Below are positions 1 through 12,647 of a DNA stretch of 12,647 bases, piece by piece. How positions within the stretch are numbered: the stretch's first letter is position 1; every line of letters starts with the position of its first letter. The translations under genes and the position numbers were made by a program. Origin of the DNA: a virus (taxonomy: Duplodnaviria > Heunggongvirae > Uroviricota > Caudoviricetes); the IMG/VR virus record IMGVR_UViG_2671180422_000004; one strand, written 5' to 3'. The notes beneath the pieces were generated by a model. It worked only from the letters and a program-made list of their open reading frames with translations. It made no database searches and was not told the DNA's origin.

Positions 1-642
1 TTAATCGGACGCTTTTAAATTTTTATTTTTCCCAGCAGAAAAATTAGCTTTCCCGCTGTTTTGCAACTCAACAAGAGGAGATAACCGTCGGTAAACAGCC
101 AAAAGTATCTTTAACTGAACCAGTTCATCTGCCCCCGATAGTTGAACCAAGTTTTTACGTTGTTCTTCACTAAGTGCCATCACAGATTCAAGTGATTTAA
201 CTGCGTCAGAAACAAGTTCAATCTCTTTAATTTGATTCTGTATACGCAGCTTCTCTGATTTCAACTTTGCCCATTCTCTTTGTCGATATGTACGCATCAC
301 CTGATCGTAAACTTTGTTGGCAGCCAGAATACTTCCACCAACAGCAGTAACTAACTCAGCAATCTGCCAAGAGATATCAATAAGAGCAGACAATTCAATA
401 AAGCCAGGAGAGGCATACTGAATTTTTTTCACTACAGGACGTAAATCTGGTGGAGTCGCACTGTAAGCCCCTCTAAAAAAGTTCACCACACTGTGCCCAC
501 CCTCCCAAGGCATTGTTGAATATCCTCTTGATCCTCCTTTTAGGCCATAAAAAAAACCATATAGCTGCAAATACTCTTTCGTTAAGACCGCGAAATCAGC
601 TAACTCCCAACGATTATCAAGCTCAATTATAACTTTTTCCAT
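1..642 (-). CDS. Hypothetical protein, 213 aa; AT-rich accessory ORF beyond ogr, function unknown
   Basis: Complete minus-strand ORF: ATG at 642-640, TAA stop at 3-1 (the window starts exactly at its stop). GGTGG SD-like element a few nt upstream. Visibly lower GC than the adjacent P2 genes. C-terminal half is K/E/L/Q-rich (coiled-coil-like). I recognise no catalytic motif. Confidence 0.55.
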   Translation of the reverse strand: MEKVIIELDNRWELADFAVLTKEYLQLYGFFYGLKGGSRGYSTMPWEGGHSVVNFFRGAYSATPPDLRPVVKKIQYASPGFIELSALIDISWQIAELVTAVGGSILAANKVYDQVMRTYRQREWAKLKSEKLRIQNQIKEIELVSDAVKSLESVMALSEEQRKNLVQLSGADELVQLKILLAVYRRLSPLVELQNSGKANFSAGKNKNLKASD

Positions 643-742
643 TTTCCACCAACCTGTCCAACTTTAAAGATTGACTTTTAAGTATATGATAAACATAGTT
701 TATTAAACGTGATCCACTACTTTTAATGAAGAATATTCCCCA

Positions 743-778
743 AAACAGAAAGCCCCTCGACTGAGGGGCTTTCTGTTT
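743..778. terminator. Bidirectional intrinsic terminator hairpin downstream of ogr
   Basis: Perfect 16-bp inverted repeat AAACAGAAAGCCCCTC (743-758) / GAGGGGCTTTCTGTTT (763-778) with 4-nt loop GACT. GC-rich core flanked by an A-tract and a T-tract, so it can terminate in either orientation. It begins 5 nt past the ogr stop. Confidence 0.65.
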
Positions 779-782
779 GTAA

Positions 783-1001
783 TTACATCCACATAATTTG
801 CTGCCCTGACGGCAACGGGTGCGGCCTTACGGCGTGGACTTCTCCCGGTTTCACGATGTATCGCTGTACCGACTCATAAGTGATGAACGTGGCGCTGCAA
901 TTCACGTTCTGACACTGGTGATAACGCTCTTTTGTCGTGTCAGTAATATAGCGACTTGTACGCGCATGTGCGGCATGCTGGCATAAAGGACAATGAAACA
1001 T
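783..1001 (-). CDS. ogr: Ogr, zinc-finger late-gene transcriptional activator (72 aa)
   Basis: Translation from the internal ATG (1001-999) gives MFHCPLCQHAAHARTSRY...SGQQIMWM, 72 aa, with C-x2-C ... C-x4-C zinc-finger cysteines, matching my recollection of P2 Ogr. AGAGG-type SD about 8 nt upstream. The 93-aa ORF-track version starts at an upstream in-frame start codon that I consider unlikely. Confidence 0.9.
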   Translation of the reverse strand: MFHCPLCQHAAHARTSRYITDTTKERYHQCQNVNCSATFITYESVQRYIVKPGEVHAVRPHPLPSGQQIMWM

Positions 1002-1082
1002 CGCGAGCACCTCTTCCGGTTTTGTTGATGGTGCCATTTTAGTTAATTTATCCTTATAAAACAAACAGATAAAATAAAAACA

Positions 1083-1922
1083 TCACTCATCATCTTCTGT
1101 TTCGTACTCCACATCAGAAAGCCTGACCTCAAGCTCTAAGGACGTCGTGAAGCCGCTATTATTCAGAAAATGTGTCACCTTAGTGATTGTCCAGTCCTGC
1201 TCGTCTATGACGCGCTTAAAGCCTGACACTTTAACCGGTGTTTCCGTGTAAATATCAGCCCGACCGGTAGCCAGGCTGATGGAGAACTCCGCAACGCCCC
1301 GTTGCAGTTTATCCCACTTCGCCTGAGCGGCGCGCATGGCCTGCGCTTTCGTGGCATATACCGTAGTCAGGGCAAAAACATTGTCAGCCTCACCTGCCAT
1401 GTATTCACCTTCGCGCGCTTCCGGTACTTTTGGCGCTTTCTTCTGCGTGACCGGTTTCGCTTTCGGGTGCTCCAGTGCGCGCAGGTGTTTCTCTTTCTTT
1501 TTGCGTTTCAGTTTTACCTTCTGCTTTTGCGGCTTCGGGTCTTTGGTGTGTAACCACTTTGCCGTTACGCCGGTGTAGGCTCCACGGTCAGCAATCGCAA
1601 AATGATGGCGGTCACCGTCGCTGCGGGTGATGGTGACCTGCGGGATTTTTTTACCGCTGGCCGTCACCCCCTGCCCCGCTTTGAGAAACAGCAGTTTTCC
1701 CATTTTTACCGACACCTCACCGCCGTTGCGTTCTGCAAGACGGGTCAGAAATTTCGCATCAGACTCCTGCGACTGGTCGATGTGCGGGATTTTAATTCCG
1801 GCCAGTGACGGAGCGACACTGGCTTCCAGCCTGTTACGGGAGGCTACCCGTTCTGGTCGGGTGAACTGTTCAACCGGGGACGCGCCAGCGCCGCCGAACG
1901 CGTGGAAATCGACGTCAGTCAT
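1083..1922 (-). pseudogene. D: 5'-truncated tail gene D (phage late control D / gpD family), C-terminal about 270-280 codons retained
   Basis: C-terminal sequence (...IKIPHIDQSQESDAKFLTRLAERNGGEVSVKMGKLLFLKAGQGVTASGKKIPQVTITRSDGDRHHFAIADRGAYTGVTAKW ... lysine-rich linker ... SLELEVRLSDVEYETEDDE) reads as gpD family. P2 gpD is about 387 aa by recollection, and the N-terminal region is absent because the upstream open frame is antisense to terminase coding sequence. The minus frame stays open to 2219 and the ORF-track start at 2123 is a TTG; the true 5' limit is the deletion junction, which I cannot place exactly. Confidence 0.7.
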
Positions 1923-2741
1923 AACGCCCTTGCCGGTGGGCTTCTCTGTGCAGACGGCCAGTGGCGGCAGATTGTCACCATTGAGGACGCGCTGAAAGGC
2001 GGCTGCACGCTGTTCGACATTGAGCAGCTCAAACGTGAAAACAGCGCCGACGATTTTAAAAACCTGTTCATGTGTGAATTTGTTGACGACAAGGCGTCGG
2101 TGTTCCCGTTCGAGGAGCTGCAACGCTGCATGGTCGACACGCTGGAAGAATGGGAAGACTATGCGCCGTTTGCCGCGAATCCGTTCGGCTCCCGCCCGGT
2201 ATGGATTGGTTACGACCCGTCACACCGTGGCGACAGCGCCGGATGCGTGGTACTGGCACCGCCGGTGGTGGCCGGTGGCAAATTCAGAATACTTGAGCGT
2301 CACCAGTGGAAAGGCATGGACTTTGCCACTCAGGCGGAATCCATCCGCAAACTCACCGAAAAATACAACGTCGAATACATCGGTATTGATGCCACCGGCC
2401 TCGGTGTCGGCGTGTTCCAGCTCGTGCGCTCGTTCTATCCCGCCGCGCGCGATATCCGCTACACACCGGAAATGAAAACCGCAATGGTGCTCAAGGCAAA
2501 AGACGTCATCCGCCGTGGCTGTCTGGAATATGACGTCAGCGCCACCGACATCACCAGCTCGTTTATGGCTATCCGCAAGACCATGACCAGCAGCGGACGC
2601 AGCGCCACGTATGAGGCCAGCCGCAGCGAGGAAGCCAGCCACGCCGACCTCGCCTGGGCGACCATGCACGCCCTGTTAAATGAGCCACTCACCGCCGGTA
2701 TCAGCACCCCGCTGACATCCACCATTCTGGAGTTTTACTGA
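1902..2741 (+). pseudogene. P: 5'-truncated terminase large (ATPase/nuclease) subunit gene P, C-terminal about half retained
   Basis: Translation contains the terminase nuclease-domain signature ...RPVWIGYDPSHRGDSAGCVVLAPP...GKFRILERHQWKGMDFATQAESIRKLTEKYNVEYIGIDATGLGVGVFQ... and ends with a TGA overlapping the Q start (TGATG). P2 gpP is about 590 aa by recollection, so the N-terminal ATPase half is missing. The ORF-track start at 1902 is a GTG; the frame is open back to 1809, where an in-frame TGA sits. Confidence 0.75.
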
Positions 2742-3775
2742 TGAGCAAGAAAAAAGGGAAAACACCGCAACCTGCGGCCAAAAAAATGACCGCCAGCGCC
2801 CCGAAAATGGAAGCATTCACCTTTGGCGAGCCGGTACCGGTACTCGACCGCCGTGACATTCTGGATTACGTCGAGTGCATCAGTAACGGCAGATGGTATG
2901 AACCACCGGTCAGCTTTACCGGTCTGGCAAAAAGCCTGCGTGCTGCCGTGCATCACAGCTCACCGATTTACGTCAAACGTAATATTCTGGCCTCAACATT
3001 TATCCCGCATCCGTGGCTTTCCCAGCAGGATTTCAGCCGCTTTGTGCTGGATTTTCTGGTGTTCGGTAATGCGTTTCTGGAAAAGCGTTACAGCACCACC
3101 GGTAAGGTCATCAGACTGGAAACCTCACCGGCAAAATATACCCGTCGTGGCGTGGAGGAGGATGTTTACTGGTGGGTGCCGTCCTTCAACGAGCCGACAC
3201 CTTTCACGCCCGGCTCCGTGTTTCACCTGCTGGAGCCGGATATCAATCAGGAGCTGTACGGCCTGCCAGAATATCTGAGCGCCCTTAACTCTGCCTGGCT
3301 GAATGAGTCGGCCACGCTGTTCCGCCGCAAGTATTACGAAAACGGCGCTCATGCCGGATATATCATGTACGTCACCGATGCCGTGCAGGACCGCAACGAT
3401 ATCGAAATGCTTCGCGAAAACATGGTTAAGTCGAAAGGCCGCAACAACTTTAAAAATCTGTTTCTCTATGCCCCGCAGGGGAAAGCTGACGGCATTAAAA
3501 TTATCCCGCTCAGTGAAGTGGCAACGAAGGACGATTTTTTTAATATCAAAAAAGCCAGCGCCGCTGACCTGCTGGACGCGCACCGCATCCCCTTTCAGTT
3601 GATGGGCGGCAAGCCGGAGAACGTCGGGTCACTGGGAGATATTGAGAAAGTGGCAAAGGTCTTTGTCCGCAATGAGCTTATCCCGCTACAGGACAGGATC
3701 CGCGAGATAAACGGCTGGCTCGGTCAGGAGGTCATCCGCTTTAAAAACTACTCACTGGACACTGACAACGGCTGA
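2741..3775 (+). CDS. Q: Portal (capsid portal vertex) protein Q, 344 aa
   Basis: 344-aa product MSKKKGKTPQPAAKK...FKNYSLDTDNG, same length and lysine-rich N-terminus as P2 gpQ as I recall it. ATG at 2741 overlaps the P stop (coupled operon). Followed by a terminator. Confidence 0.92.
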   Translation: MSKKKGKTPQPAAKKMTASAPKMEAFTFGEPVPVLDRRDILDYVECISNGRWYEPPVSFTGLAKSLRAAVHHSSPIYVKRNILASTFIPHPWLSQQDFSRFVLDFLVFGNAFLEKRYSTTGKVIRLETSPAKYTRRGVEEDVYWWVPSFNEPTPFTPGSVFHLLEPDINQELYGLPEYLSALNSAWLNESATLFRRKYYENGAHAGYIMYVTDAVQDRNDIEMLRENMVKSKGRNNFKNLFLYAPQGKADGIKIIPLSEVATKDDFFNIKKASAADLLDAHRIPFQLMGGKPENVGSLGDIEKVAKVFVRNELIPLQDRIREINGWLGQEVIRFKNYSLDTDNG

Positions 3776-3780
3776 ACATC

Positions 3781-3802
3781 GCCGCCTGCGGGCGGCTTTT
3801 TT
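3781..3802 (+). terminator. Intrinsic terminator after Q
   Basis: GCCGCC (3781-3786) / loop TGCG / GGCGGC (3791-3796) followed by TTTTTT (3797-3802), 6 nt after the Q stop. Confidence 0.6.
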
Positions 3803-3944
3803 ACATCCCGTCATCACGCCCTCACACGCTCACCACCGCACAAAACAGTCCGCAGGCAAACCAACGCCTCAACGGACAGACTAAGCGCCGTCACGACGCG
3901 CTGAGACGCTGAAAAAATAAAATCAGCACCACCGCCAGCGCGCA

Positions 3945-3963
3945 GTGCTTTCCCCGCCTCGCC
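3945..3963. other. cos site: 19-nt cohesive-end sequence of P2 type
   Basis: Plus strand reads GTGCTTTCCCCGCCTCGCC, the reverse complement of GGCGAGGCGGGGAAAGCAC, which I recall as the P2 19-nt cohesive end. It sits where expected, between the Q end and the tin/old-equivalent region. Confidence 0.7.
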
Positions 3964-4057
3964 CGCCCGCTTCATGGGGCGGTTTTGATGCAACCTCGTA
4001 TTAAAGGGGACACCATAGCCCATCAAACCTCAGACTTCGCCCCTAGCTAACGTTTAT

Positions 4058-4146: not shown

Positions 4147-6630
4147 ATGTCTGGTTTTTTCCTTGATTTAACCAAGCTTTCGCCCAGTGTAAATAGCGAC
4201 ACAGCGATTCCACCGCGAGATATATTTACAGCTCTACCGAGCAAAGACACCAAATTTCAATACCCTCGAGATGTGCAATCAGAGGTCTGGGAAAAATGGT
4301 ATGAAGCAAGGAGAAGCCCAACCAATGTAATAAAAATGAATACCGGAAGCGGTAAAACTTCAGTTGGGTTAATCATTCTTAAAAGCTGTATAAATGAAGG
4401 AGAAGGTCCCGCTGTATATGTTGTTCCTGACAACTATCTAGTTGAGCAAGTGGTTTTGGAGGCTAATCAACTTGGTATACCTGTAACTCAAGATGAGAGG
4501 TCCCCCAAATTTATTGCAGGTAAAGAAATTTTAGTTACAAATATATTCAAAGTGGTTAATGGACGTTCTGCATTTGGCGTTGGAGATGATGGACAAAGAA
4601 TACCAATAGGTTCTATAATAATTGACGATGCTCACGCTTGCCTTTCTTCAATTGAAGAACAATTCTCCATTAGCATTCAAAAAAACAACCCTGCCTATGA
4701 TAAATTATTCAGAATTTTTGAAAATTCACTAATGACACAAGCTGGTGCAAAAACACTAGAGATAAAATCCGGCGATAGAAATGCTTATGTGAGAGTTCCA
4801 TTTTGGAAATGGCAAGAAAGCATAAATGATATAATGACAATCTTGTTAGAAAATAAAGACCATGATGACTTGAGTTTCAAATGGCCATTAATAAAAGACA
4901 ATCTAATATTATCGAAATGCGTTGTAAGTGCTTCCAAAATAGAGATATCACCTCATTGCATACCAATCCAAATGATCCCAAGCCTATCAAACGCAAGAAG
5001 AAAAATATTCATGACAGCTACTCTTGTCGATGAATCCATTCTAGCGAGCCACTTCGGAATAACGGATGAATCACTCTCTAATCCGATAACACCAAAAACA
5101 ATTGGTGATATTGGTGATAGAATGATACTAATGCCTCAGGTTATAAACCCTAGTCTTTCTGATGTAGATATCAAAGCTATGTGCAAGGAGATATCCTCCA
5201 AACATAATGTTGTTGTAATTGTACCATCCGATTACAGAACTAGATTTTGGCAAGATGTTGCAGACAGAATATTAGATAAAAATACAATTTATCAAGGTGT
5301 ACAAGAATTAAGGACACAACATGTTGGCTTAGTAGTCCTAGTTAATAGATATGATGGTATTGATTTACCAAATACCGCATGTCGTCTATTAGTAATAGAT
5401 GGACTTCCTGACGTTCGTAGACTAATAGATAAAGTCTCACAAAGCTTATTGCTTGGAAGCGAAAAAACCAAAGATGAAATTATCCAGAAAATTGAACAAG
5501 GAATGGGGCGAGGAGTGAGATCAAGCGACGACTTCTGCGGAGTGATCTTACTTGGCAAAGCATTAAATGGCGCTGTTTTCCTTGGCTCCTCCTTAGAAAG
5601 GTTTTCTCCAGCAACGAAAGCACAAATTCAACTTTCACAGCAATTGGTATCGATACTGCCGGATACAACTATTGATTCAATCAAAGGTGCTCTTGATTAT
5701 TGTCTGTTACGCAATTCTGACTGGGTCTCAAAAAGCAAAGGTATATTGACTGGCTTAACATTGGAAAATAAGCAGATTGACCAGCATACTATAAATAAAA
5801 GATTGGCATATGACTTAGCATCACGAAATATGTTTCAACAAGCCGCTTTAACTCTAAAAAATGATAGTAGTACAGCTGACAAAGTTTATAAGGGTTATCT
5901 AAAAGAACATGCTGCGGAATATGTAAACTTATATGACAAATCTGAAGCTCAGATATTGCTTCAGTCTGCATCAAACGATAACTATCGGGTATTAAAACCA
6001 CTAATCGGCGTAACATATAATAGACTTAATGGTGCGGCACTTGAACAGGCCAGGGAATGTAGCTCCTATCTCAGAAGTAATTTTGAATCGGCCAATCAAG
6101 TCGTTGTGCATACTAATTCAATAATAGAAAACCTTATTTTCTCCGAGGGCACATCGAATCCCTTCGAAGATGCTATCGAAAAAGTTGCATATTTGGTCGG
6201 TTTTCGTAGCCAACGGCCAGAAAATGATACAGGTAAAGGACCTGACAATTTATGGGCAATGGGAGAAAACAATTATCTAGTAATTGAATGCAAAAATGGA
6301 GCAACCGCAGAAAGAATAAGTAAGCATGACTGCAATCAGTTAAATGGGTCGGGTGCATGGTTCAGAAACATGTATGATCAAACTGCTACCGCCACACCTA
6401 TAATGATACATCACTCTAATATGCCTGAATATGCCGCAACACTAAACGAAGGGTCTCGAATAATGACCATAAATGATCTTGAACGTTTTAAAGCATCTAT
6501 CCTCAGTTTTATCACGGCCATTTGTACAAGTGATAAACGACACGATGAGATATTTATAAGAGAACAATTGATCACATGTAAATTACGTGCATCAGACATA
6601 GTTGAAACCTATACGCGAAACCCTCGTTAA
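4147..6630 (+). CDS. Helicase-nuclease fusion protein, 827 aa: N-terminal SF2 DExH-type helicase core plus C-terminal PD-(D/E)xK nuclease-like domain; candidate anti-phage defence/exclusion protein
   Basis: Strong SD AAGAGGA 6 nt before ATG. Helicase motifs in order: I NTGSGKT (aa 65-71; nt 4339-4359), Ia AVYVVPDNYLVEQ, II IIIDDAHA (DDAH, aa 160-163; nt 4624-4635), III FMTATL, V YDGIDLPNTACRLLVIDGLPD, VI QGMGRGVRSSDDFCGVILLG. C-terminal FEDAIEK ... GPD (D700; nt 6244-6246) ... VIECK (E714/K716; nt 6286-6294) fits an E..PD..ExK restriction-endonuclease-like active site. GC clearly lower than the phage backbone (about 30-43% in two 60-nt samples I counted). Confidence 0.85.
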   Translation: MSGFFLDLTKLSPSVNSDTAIPPRDIFTALPSKDTKFQYPRDVQSEVWEKWYEARRSPTNVIKMNTGSGKTSVGLIILKSCINEGEGPAVYVVPDNYLVEQVVLEANQLGIPVTQDERSPKFIAGKEILVTNIFKVVNGRSAFGVGDDGQRIPIGSIIIDDAHACLSSIEEQFSISIQKNNPAYDKLFRIFENSLMTQAGAKTLEIKSGDRNAYVRVPFWKWQESINDIMTILLENKDHDDLSFKWPLIKDNLILSKCVVSASKIEISPHCIPIQMIPSLSNARRKIFMTATLVDESILASHFGITDESLSNPITPKTIGDIGDRMILMPQVINPSLSDVDIKAMCKEISSKHNVVVIVPSDYRTRFWQDVADRILDKNTIYQGVQELRTQHVGLVVLVNRYDGIDLPNTACRLLVIDGLPDVRRLIDKVSQSLLLGSEKTKDEIIQKIEQGMGRGVRSSDDFCGVILLGKALNGAVFLGSSLERFSPATKAQIQLSQQLVSILPDTTIDSIKGALDYCLLRNSDWVSKSKGILTGLTLENKQIDQHTINKRLAYDLASRNMFQQAALTLKNDSSTADKVYKGYLKEHAAEYVNLYDKSEAQILLQSASNDNYRVLKPLIGVTYNRLNGAALEQARECSSYLRSNFESANQVVVHTNSIIENLIFSEGTSNPFEDAIEKVAYLVGFRSQRPENDTGKGPDNLWAMGENNYLVIECKNGATAERISKHDCNQLNGSGAWFRNMYDQTATATPIMIHHSNMPEYAATLNEGSRIMTINDLERFKASILSFITAICTSDKRHDEIFIREQLITCKLRASDIVETYTRNPR

Positions 6631-11597: not shown

Positions 11598-11666
11598 CTC
11601 TATATAAAGATTACATTTTCACCATTTGCTACCAAGATGGTGAATACAGCGCCGGAGGGCTTTCTT

Positions 11667-12647
11667 ATGGCAATTAAGAAGCTCGATGATGGTCGCTATG
11701 AAGTGGACATTAGACCTCGCGGTCGCGACGGAAAACGCATCCGCAGGAAATTCGAAAGAAAAGCTGAAGCACTAGCATTTGAGCGATACACAATCGCCAA
11801 TGCCAGTCAGAAAGAATGGGGAGGCCAGCGAGCAGACCGCCGGACTTTGAGTGAGTTGCTGGACATCTGGTGGAAATATCACGGGCAAAACCACGAGCAT
11901 GGAACAAAAGAGTTTAATCATCTACTCAAAACCATCAGCGGCATAGGTGATATACCAGTGAGCAGGATGAGCAAAAGGGCTTTGATGGATTATCGTTCCA
12001 TGCGACTACGTGATGGTATCAGTGCCGCAACGATAAACCGTGACATGTACCGATTATCCGGCATGTTCACAAAATTAATTCAATTGGATGAATTTTCCGG
12101 GCAACACCCAATTCACGGACTGCCGCCACTGGCGGAGGCCAACCCTGAAATGACGTTCCTGGAAAAAGCAGAAATCGAAAAACTGTTAAATGTTTTGGCT
12201 GGTGATGACTTACTTGTCGCGCTTTTATGTCTGAGCACCGGAGGAAGATGGACGGAAGTTGCCACGCTAAAACCAGCACAGATTACAAATTGCAGGGTTA
12301 CCTTCCTGAAAACCAAAAACGGTAAAAAGCGAACCGTGCCGATTTCTGAGGAACTGGAGAAAAAAGTTAAAGAGGAGGCCAGCGCCAAATTATTCAAAGT
12401 TGATTATGAGAAATTTTGCGGGATTTTACGCAGAGTGAAACCTGATATACCACCCAATCAGGCAACCCACATCCTGCGGCATACATTCGCAAGCCATTTC
12501 ATGATGAATGGGGGCAATATAATCGCACTGCAACAGATTCTGGGACATGCGAGCATTCAGCAGACGATGGCCTATGCGCACCTTGCGCCTGACTATCTGC
12601 AAAATGCCGTCGCTCTGAATCCACTAAAAGGCGGAGTGACGTTATAA
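11667..12647 (+). CDS. int: Tyrosine integrase, P2 Int family (326 aa)
   Basis: Translation from ATG 11667 (GGAGGG SD 7 nt upstream) starts MAIKKLDDGRYEVDIRPRGRDGKRIRRKF... and contains the catalytic-domain signatures ...ATHILRHTFASHFMMNGGNIIALQQILGHASIQQTMAYAHLAPDYL (R, H-x-x-R, Y). TAA stop is the last 3 nt of the window. The ORF-track start at 11637 adds 10 residues, which I consider less likely. Confidence 0.9.
   Translation: MAIKKLDDGRYEVDIRPRGRDGKRIRRKFERKAEALAFERYTIANASQKEWGGQRADRRTLSELLDIWWKYHGQNHEHGTKEFNHLLKTISGIGDIPVSRMSKRALMDYRSMRLRDGISAATINRDMYRLSGMFTKLIQLDEFSGQHPIHGLPPLAEANPEMTFLEKAEIEKLLNVLAGDDLLVALLCLSTGGRWTEVATLKPAQITNCRVTFLKTKNGKKRTVPISEELEKKVKEEASAKLFKVDYEKFCGILRRVKPDIPPNQATHILRHTFASHFMMNGGNIIALQQILGHASIQQTMAYAHLAPDYLQNAVALNPLKGGVTL

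Follow-up and report, generated by a model that had tools for sequence, protein, structure and literature searches.

Does the AT-rich open reading frame lying beyond ogr, at one edge of a P2-like prophage, belong to that prophage, to its host or to a larger island, and what might its product do? The question arises from a stretch of 12,647 nucleotides (IMG/VR record IMGVR_UViG_2671180422_000004), referred to in its entirety as the window, which is an E. coli P2-like prophage running from the ogr end to the integrase end. The reading frame, ORF213 (1–642, minus strand), is followed by the ogr terminator (743–778) and by ogrK (783–1001, minus strand; RefSeq WP_000468308.1), which encodes the late-gene activator and is the final backbone gene of the prophage, and then by a truncated gpD joined to the C-terminal portion of terminase gpP, the portal gene gpQ, an AT-rich helicase gene (827 aa; 4147–6630, plus strand), gpA, cox and C, and the integrase gene (11637–12647). 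Comparison with the complete prophage of strain CFS3273 (locus L002) revealed 100% identity except for a 21.3-kb deletion, in which L002 3507–24815, a segment starting within gpD and ending within terminase gpP, has been lost and the junction (window 1844–1846) shows a 3-bp CTA microhomology. Thus, the window represents a degraded prophage from which all virion genes are gone, and ORF213 is kept intact in this remnant, minus 21.3 kb of structural genes, together with ogr and the helicase, replication, immunity and integrase genes. The same deletion junction, accompanied by an IS21-family insertion, is found in strain EC2. The GC content of the whole prophage is 52.4%. Its other AT-rich accessory gene, that of the 827-aa protein (annotated as a DEAD/DEAH helicase), occupies the classical tin/old hotspot of P2, which lies between gpQ and gpA, and its product is matched end to end by the PADLOC candidate system PDC-S28 (E=0, 1054 bits).

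Boundaries of the prophage and of the inserted segment

The element is flanked by fieF and cpxP in complete genomes, and its att core is a 47-bp direct repeat (GATAAAAAAAACCCCCACA[G/T]CATGTGGGGGAAGACAGGGATGGTGTC; L002 1532–1578 and 35736–35782), one copy of which is found between fieF and the ORF213 stop codon and the other between the integrase stop codon and cpxP. A composite empty site, assembled from the fieF flank, one copy of the repeat and the cpxP flank, matched 4591 of 5426 complete E. coli genomes as one unbroken stretch at 100% identity, K-12 MG1655 included. The att repeat to the left of the gene and the contiguous empty site together place ORF213 inside the att-delimited element. 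The window itself ends at the ORF213 stop codon with nothing further, which is compatible with a conserved host gene outside the prophage, or with the opening gene of a larger island extending leftwards; the preliminary description had raised the latter, and had named an att site between positions 643 and 742 as the sign of the former. Mapping of the site agrees with neither notion, since the att core lies between ORF213 and fieF, its end 82 bp to the left of window base 1, the next gene on the left is fieF itself (start 207 bp away), the segment contains one gene, and the site is empty in 4591 of the 5426 genomes with ORF213 present in only 159. Host-gene origin and a larger left locus are both ruled out by these boundaries, and retain practically no probability.

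The extent of the segment was defined by comparison with related prophages. Approximately 1990 genomes with P2-like prophages match the window only from position 749 onwards, this being the start of the conserved P2 backbone within the terminator hairpin. Genomes fall into three classes at the fieF–cpxP att site, namely empty sites whose homology does not extend past the att core, prophages in which the att core is shared along with 70 bp of phage arm as far as L002:1648, divergence setting in thereafter, and 158 genomes running on into ORF213. In two prophages at this site that lack ORF213 (L018, L019) the arm leads directly into the ogr terminator, and in two others at the classical yegQ site (L016, L017) ogr is directly followed by att. 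The breakpoints at 749 and L002:1648, together with these sister prophages lacking the gene, establish a discrete single-gene insertion of ~760 bp (L002 1649–2408, or window −12 to 748, of which 1–748 lies within the window), flanked by attP integrase-arm DNA and the ogr terminator, with ORF213 as its only gene. The earlier proposal of an accessory gene inside the prophage beyond ogr, where these four relatives have just a terminator and att, is thereby upheld. The ogr-side phage arm holds a GTCCACATAGCGTCCACA repeat, found again on the integrase-side arm. Direct repeats of GTCCACATAG[C/T]GTCCACA by the att core on both arms (L002 1630–1650 and 35637–35656) are probably integrase arm-type binding sites, and the insertion starts a few bases past the ogr-side copy, leaving this repeat intact.

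Among complete E. coli genomes the segment occurs in 159 of 5426, in 158 of these at a sequence identity of at least 99% and always at the same site, and ORF213 is uninterrupted in 158 of the 159 as well as in a Salmonella copy. By these alignments its E. coli distribution is near-clonal, representing one prophage lineage at one site. A tblastn search of 50,697 sequenced phage records gave no match, and the gene has so far been seen only in prophages. The Salmonella copy, 100% identical and located at the fieF site, comes from a linear 80-kb record of Salmonella enterica SR33 labelled ‘plasmid unnamed1’ (NZ_CP092913.1, L028), which carries fieF, pfkA, sbp and the same prophage end. A plasmid-borne copy in Salmonella was considered and rejected, the record being a mislabelled chromosomal contig as judged by fieF and pfkA, and it indicates that Salmonella, too, is lysogenised by this phage lineage, with integration at an unchanged site. 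Two E. coli strains carry insertion sequences in this region: IS150 separates ORF213 from the ogr terminator in Ec-050 (L015 6787–8156), and ISApl1 truncates the 5' end of ORF213 in 2018-05-2CC (L029 3513–4606), where the prophage is heavily degraded.

ORF213 itself begins with ATG, encodes 213 aa and ends with TAA at window bases 1–3, as given by the open reading frame list and by an intact RefSeq coding sequence (WP_000416606.1, named ‘hypothetical protein’). Its GC content is 39.9%, and that of positions 1–748 is 38.5%, compared with 54.7% for the backbone at 749–4000. The initial picture of a low-GC reading frame ending at the window edge, preceded by a terminator, was thus accurate. This terminator, the intrinsic-terminator hairpin of ogr (743–778, minus strand), was supported by its fold, the homology breakpoint and alignment with L018; its 16-bp stem has a dG of −28.3 kcal/mol (z = −6.4, with none of 200 shuffles equal), and it was missed by a simple consensus scan since only four T follow the stem. 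Between terminator and gene is an AT-rich, cassette-specific leader of ~106 bp (643–748, minus strand), identified from the sequence and from the start of homology at 749, with a GGTGG ribosome-binding site 3 nt ahead of the ATG; a promoter scan found no consensus promoter on the ORF213 strand. At the opposite end the stop codon lies in a second hairpin (minus strand; L002 1642–1663, comprising window 1–12 and 12 bases to the left), with an 8-bp stem (AGCGUCCG-AUUAAA-CGGACGCU) and the UAA in its loop. Folding of L002:1625–1690 on the minus strand gave this hairpin a dG of −18 kcal/mol (z = −3.6), and no U-tract follows it. The window edge splits the structure, its second half lying just outside. 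The gene thus has the ogr terminator before it and a hairpin after it. An Rfam search of 1–1200 returned nothing near gathering scores.

A domain shared with PD-T4-10B, in short and long forms

The preliminary description saw no recognisable features in the 213-aa protein apart from a coiled-coil-like C-terminal half, and this must be revised, as ORF213 is clearly homologous to the conserved domain that forms the C-terminal part of the anti-phage toxin PD-T4-10B. The PADLOC PD-T4-10_B model PDLC04024 aligns ORF213 residues 3–201 with profile positions 139–346 of 353 (E=1.3e-34), and further B models, PDLC04025 (E=7e-23) and PDLC04026 (E=3e-19), also match. Searches of Pfam, PHROGs and NCBIfam with ORF213 gave nothing meaningful, a family profile run against all PDB sequences found none below E=0.1, and no structural or sequence relative with an established activity came to light.

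A direct search returned 118 homologues from Enterobacter, Siccibacter, Pectobacterium, Pseudomonas, Vibrio, Agarivorans and many metagenomes, nearly all of 198–252 aa (a few shorter ones cover part of the query) and none with a Pfam domain, and a profile search of 1.84 billion representatives extended the family to 789 clusters at 50% identity. Two architectures are found: a short form of ~210–240 aa consisting of the domain alone, to which most top profile matches belong, and a long form of ~320–400 aa, whose N-terminal extension of ~120–165 residues matches Pfam DUF6575 and which matches the PD-T4-10_B model over its full length (E 1e-72 to 1e-92). Ten residues (W12, Y28, W46, G48, G49, S51, S78, P79, G80 and R185) are invariant in short and long forms, five others (F55, Y76, I82, L84 and K178) are nearly so, and ORF213 retains all of them. 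It begins where the shared domain begins, lacks the DUF6575-like N-terminal domain, and belongs to a short-form family in which start, length and motifs are conserved across phyla. With every signature residue kept, ORF213 is a complete short-form protein rather than the product of a truncated gene, and the strong motif conservation among the 789 clusters of relatives shows that it is a real gene and no chance reading frame.

An AlphaFold2 model of ORF213 (pLDDT 84) predicts a small N-terminal α/β unit (strand 2–8, helices 14–35 and 49–61, hairpin 70–86) followed by C-terminal helices at residues 88–103, 105–154, 159–169 and 173–195, the long helix 105–154 and the two succeeding it being in line with the coiled-coil-like C-terminal half first noticed. 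The fold of the ~210-aa domain is without a known relative. A putative ligand-binding or catalytic site is suggested by the invariant GG-S at the N-terminus of a helix, by the SPG turn of the hairpin and by basic residues of the last helix. The helix at residues ~88–110 is hydrophobic in many short forms, with maximum Kyte-Doolittle 19-residue means of 1.6–2.3. A family-wide membrane anchor, which would make this a transmembrane toxin, was considered and demoted, given a value of only 1.35 in ORF213 and the charged residues found in this helix in long forms.

The nearest characterised relative, PD-T4-10, emerged from a functional selection in E. coli ECOR65 as two overlapping open reading frames (Vassallo et al. 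2022, Nat Microbiol, PMC9519451), and constitutes a validated two-gene abortive-infection system active against T-even phages in which B is toxic and neutralised by A, A cannot be deleted, and deletion of B abolishes T4 resistance; DUF6575 is among the novel defence domains of the same study (PMC9519451). In three long-form loci a reading frame of 137–148 aa abuts or overlaps the start of B and matches the PADLOC PD-T4-10_A model (E 1e-18 to 3e-20). An A HMM was built from these three verified proteins and used to search six-frame translations of all collected loci, the short-form set consisting of the window, the complete prophage, 11 look-up loci, 19 IMG/VR loci and 35 intact species-representative loci gathered by a profile search of genome contigs with the short-form alignment (~55 distinct loci after allowing for overlap). 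An A gene abuts B upstream in seven of seven distinct long-form loci (L011, L012, L013/14, L054, L055/56, L095 and L096), and no A-like reading frame was detected by this HMM within 3–6 kb of the short form in any of the ~55. The A-like frames share the motifs FKYK, DF(L/I)PPA, C-x-x-YALS-x-F and GHFD(L/F)(Y/H)E, and are often uncalled in the source assemblies (L011 3555–3998, L012 3587–4000, L013 3562–4008, and those in L054, L055, L095 and L096). Long-form A-B pairs are usually located beside an integrase gene, the pair at L012 being carried by a filamentous prophage (Zot, coat B).

Upstream of ORF213 no reading frame of at least 25 aa shows any similarity, and a hidden small antitoxin was rejected as a candidate, the 39–55-aa frames upstream of several homologues sharing no similarity with one another. 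No family recurs in more than two loci among 134 nearest-neighbour reading frames, and the layout of a bicistronic type II toxin-antitoxin pair is not found, with no conserved small frame upstream or downstream of the gene in the window or in homologous loci. With no A, no related small frames and no recurrent neighbour, the short form is best described as a single-gene module. Across the loci searched, the antitoxin tracks the DUF6575-like N-terminal domain and not the shared domain.

Genomic contexts and possible roles

Short forms are patchily spread over Gamma-, Beta-, Alpha- and Zetaproteobacteria, Spirochaetia, Bacteroidota, Verrucomicrobiota, Nitrospira, Planctomycetota and Calditrichota, and their surroundings are mobile or variable. 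A 77%-identical homologue in a P2-like prophage of Kosakonia arachidis directly follows ogr, whose product is 87.5% identical, and is itself followed by a host-like sulfatase-family gene; a 72%-identical homologue in another locus (L040) directly follows a gpD homologue at the end of a predicted prophage. The short form is likewise the last gene of several other IMG/VR predicted prophages and stands at the end of an HP1/P2-like prophage in Pectobacterium. In Enterobacter it lies in an Ogr/Delta-containing islet adjoining gapA, in Siccibacter it follows umuC, and in Pseudomonas it is a prophage moron beside a DUF4917 gene. In Vibrio (L008–L010) a VCR-type attC repeat (TAACAAACGCCTCAAGAGGGACTGTCAACGCG...) lies upstream of the homologue at L008 3025, and this repeat, together with an array of small same-strand genes, identifies the homologue as a superintegron cassette. 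Defence-type neighbours, including AIPR, PifA, AbiU, GajA, HmaC, PDC-S21, PDC-M51A, PD-Lambda-4_A, a KAP NTPase and DUF4917, appear in about one quarter of sampled loci, a proportion counted without a formal background control, so that the association is modest and at most suggestive. Disrupted copies were seen in six of 43 species-representative loci.

Taken together, these data slightly favour (with a probability of about 0.55) the interpretation that ORF213 is a single-gene anti-phage effector carried as defence cargo. According to this proposal, ORF213 is a horizontally acquired cargo gene, or ‘moron’, brought in on the ~760-bp insertion into the prophage between cpxP and fieF, and the shared domain would act as an autonomous effector that is inactive in the uninfected lysogen. 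No antitoxin would be needed if, as we infer, the effector stays inactive without a phage cue. Infection by a competing phage would then switch the effector on, leading to arrest or death of the cell and thereby protecting both the lysogen population and the prophage. The A protein and the DUF6575-like domain of the long form would represent a detachable regulatory add-on, and PW-GG-S51, Y-A-S78-P-G, K178 and R185 would contribute to the putative ligand-binding or catalytic site. Homology to a validated toxin, retention of all invariant residues, autonomy of the solo form and its mobile single-gene contexts speak for this interpretation, as do the defence-type neighbours in about one quarter of loci, the PDC-S28 candidate in the same prophage, the foreign composition and sharp boundaries of the insertion, and the survival of the intact gene in the remnant prophage. 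On the other side, functional data on the family concern the long, two-gene form only, and no promoter was recognised on the strand of the gene. Moreover, a toxin domain without an antitoxin requires an assumed auto-inhibition, and if the DUF6575-like N-terminal domain were the toxin, the solo domain would not be an effector. Persistence in E. coli could also reflect hitch-hiking, since the gene is near-clonal there (158 of 159 copies at ≥99% identity, one lineage, one site).

This last point leads to the alternative of an orphan remnant or neutral passenger of a PD-T4-10-like module, perhaps silenced, that persists by riding along with a successful prophage lineage. In E. coli, H-NS typically silences DNA as AT-rich as this, which together with the lack of a recognisable promoter and the near-clonal occurrence at one site fits such a passenger, as do the disruptions in six of 43 species-representative loci and the E. 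coli copy truncated by ISApl1. Yet the reading frame is intact in 158 of the 159 genomes and in the Salmonella copy, the family is coherent and full-length across phyla rather than a truncation product, and homologues of 72–77% identity in the same prophage slot of other genera imply long-term retention, making a mere passenger unlikely. The pattern of antitoxin occurrence, perfectly tracking the N-terminal domain and never the shared domain, would suit a different scenario in which the N-terminal domain is the dangerous part and ORF213 is a decoy, a non-toxic copy of the PD-T4-10B-type assembly or sensor domain that poisons or titrates such systems, in the host or in competing elements, or their trigger. 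A short form of this sort would need no antitoxin, and its long helices, as modelled, could mediate oligomerisation with a full-length partner. However, the invariant polar and aromatic residues kept across many phyla reflect a constraint beyond what a simple decoy would require, short forms are more numerous than long ones and occur in lineages with no long form seen nearby, and several stand beside defence rather than anti-defence genes, all of which renders this scenario rather improbable.

A role unrelated to defence, for instance as an envelope or stress-physiology factor acting in lysogenic conversion, was also weighed. The hydrophobic central helix (1.35 in ORF213, 1.6–2.3 in relatives) might be taken to hint at it, and the cargo of P2-like phages does include non-defensive genes such as plasmid-partitioning systems and cytolethal distending toxin (Rousset et al., PMC9122126). 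This role is nevertheless quite doubtful, considering that the only characterised relative is a defence toxin, that the hydrophobicity of the helix is not conserved in long forms, and that neither a signal peptide or other envelope feature nor a recurrent metabolic or virulence neighbour was found. Two broader statements can be built on these comparisons. One, tentative and short of even odds, joins a self-sufficient effector without antitoxin, a detachable A/DUF6575-like module and the ogr–attP junction as an unlisted cargo slot. In the other, a module of new fold and ~210 aa works alone, and the solo copy of the prophage is a decoy or dominant-negative inhibitor of PD-T4-10-type toxins; the former is the more probable, and the latter, itself a poor bet, would if true describe an anti-defence gene derived from a defence toxin.

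Comparison with known systems

Like the cargo of the established P2 hotspots (tin/old between gpA and portal, Z/fun in the tail region), ORF213 is small, AT-rich, polymorphic in presence or absence and flanked by backbone, and in the same prophage the tin/old hotspot is occupied by the candidate defence gene PDC-S28. In contrast to these hotspots, its site lies between the ogr terminator and the attP arm. Minor P2 sites have been described as integrase-att, integrase-primase, late-gene and post-gpL, ogr-attP not being among them (bioRxiv 10.64898/2026.02.27.708500), and the word ‘ogr’ is absent from the main text of both this preprint and Rousset et al. 2022 (PMC9122126). The insertion site is outside the P2 hotspots of Rousset et al. 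2022 and of the 2026 P2/P4 preprint, and the interval from ogr terminator to attP is a cargo position that surveys anchored on gpA/portal or tail genes would miss. A further likeness is to P2 tin, old and fun and to the lactococcal Abi genes, which are also stand-alone genes of temperate phages with a presumed role in inter-phage competition, although ORF213 has no sequence or structural similarity to any of them.

The closest comparison remains that with PD-T4-10. Over its whole length ORF213 is homologous to the C-terminal ~210 residues of PD-T4-10B (E=1.3e-34), it has all the residues that short and long forms invariably share, and it lies, as relatives of PD-T4-10 do, at the edge of an integrated mobile element. 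Unlike PD-T4-10B it has neither the ~135-aa DUF6575-like N-terminal domain nor an upstream overlapping PD-T4-10A gene, and as a single gene it does not satisfy the PADLOC definition, which comprises A and B. Lacking the full B architecture and the A partner, ORF213 is described here as a solo variant and not as a member of the system, and system-level tools such as PADLOC would not call the solo form because the A component is absent. Should the solo form defend, ~3% of complete E. coli genomes would carry an unannotated single-gene defence. More generally, the PD-T4-10 ‘toxin’ is modular, its widely dispersed ~210-aa core occurring by itself much more frequently than in fusion with a DUF6575-like domain, and this modularity offers a direct experimental route to locating the toxic half, to finding the part bound by the antitoxin and to learning whether the core can defend on its own. 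The main value of the comparison is that it renders the modular logic of PD-T4-10 directly testable.
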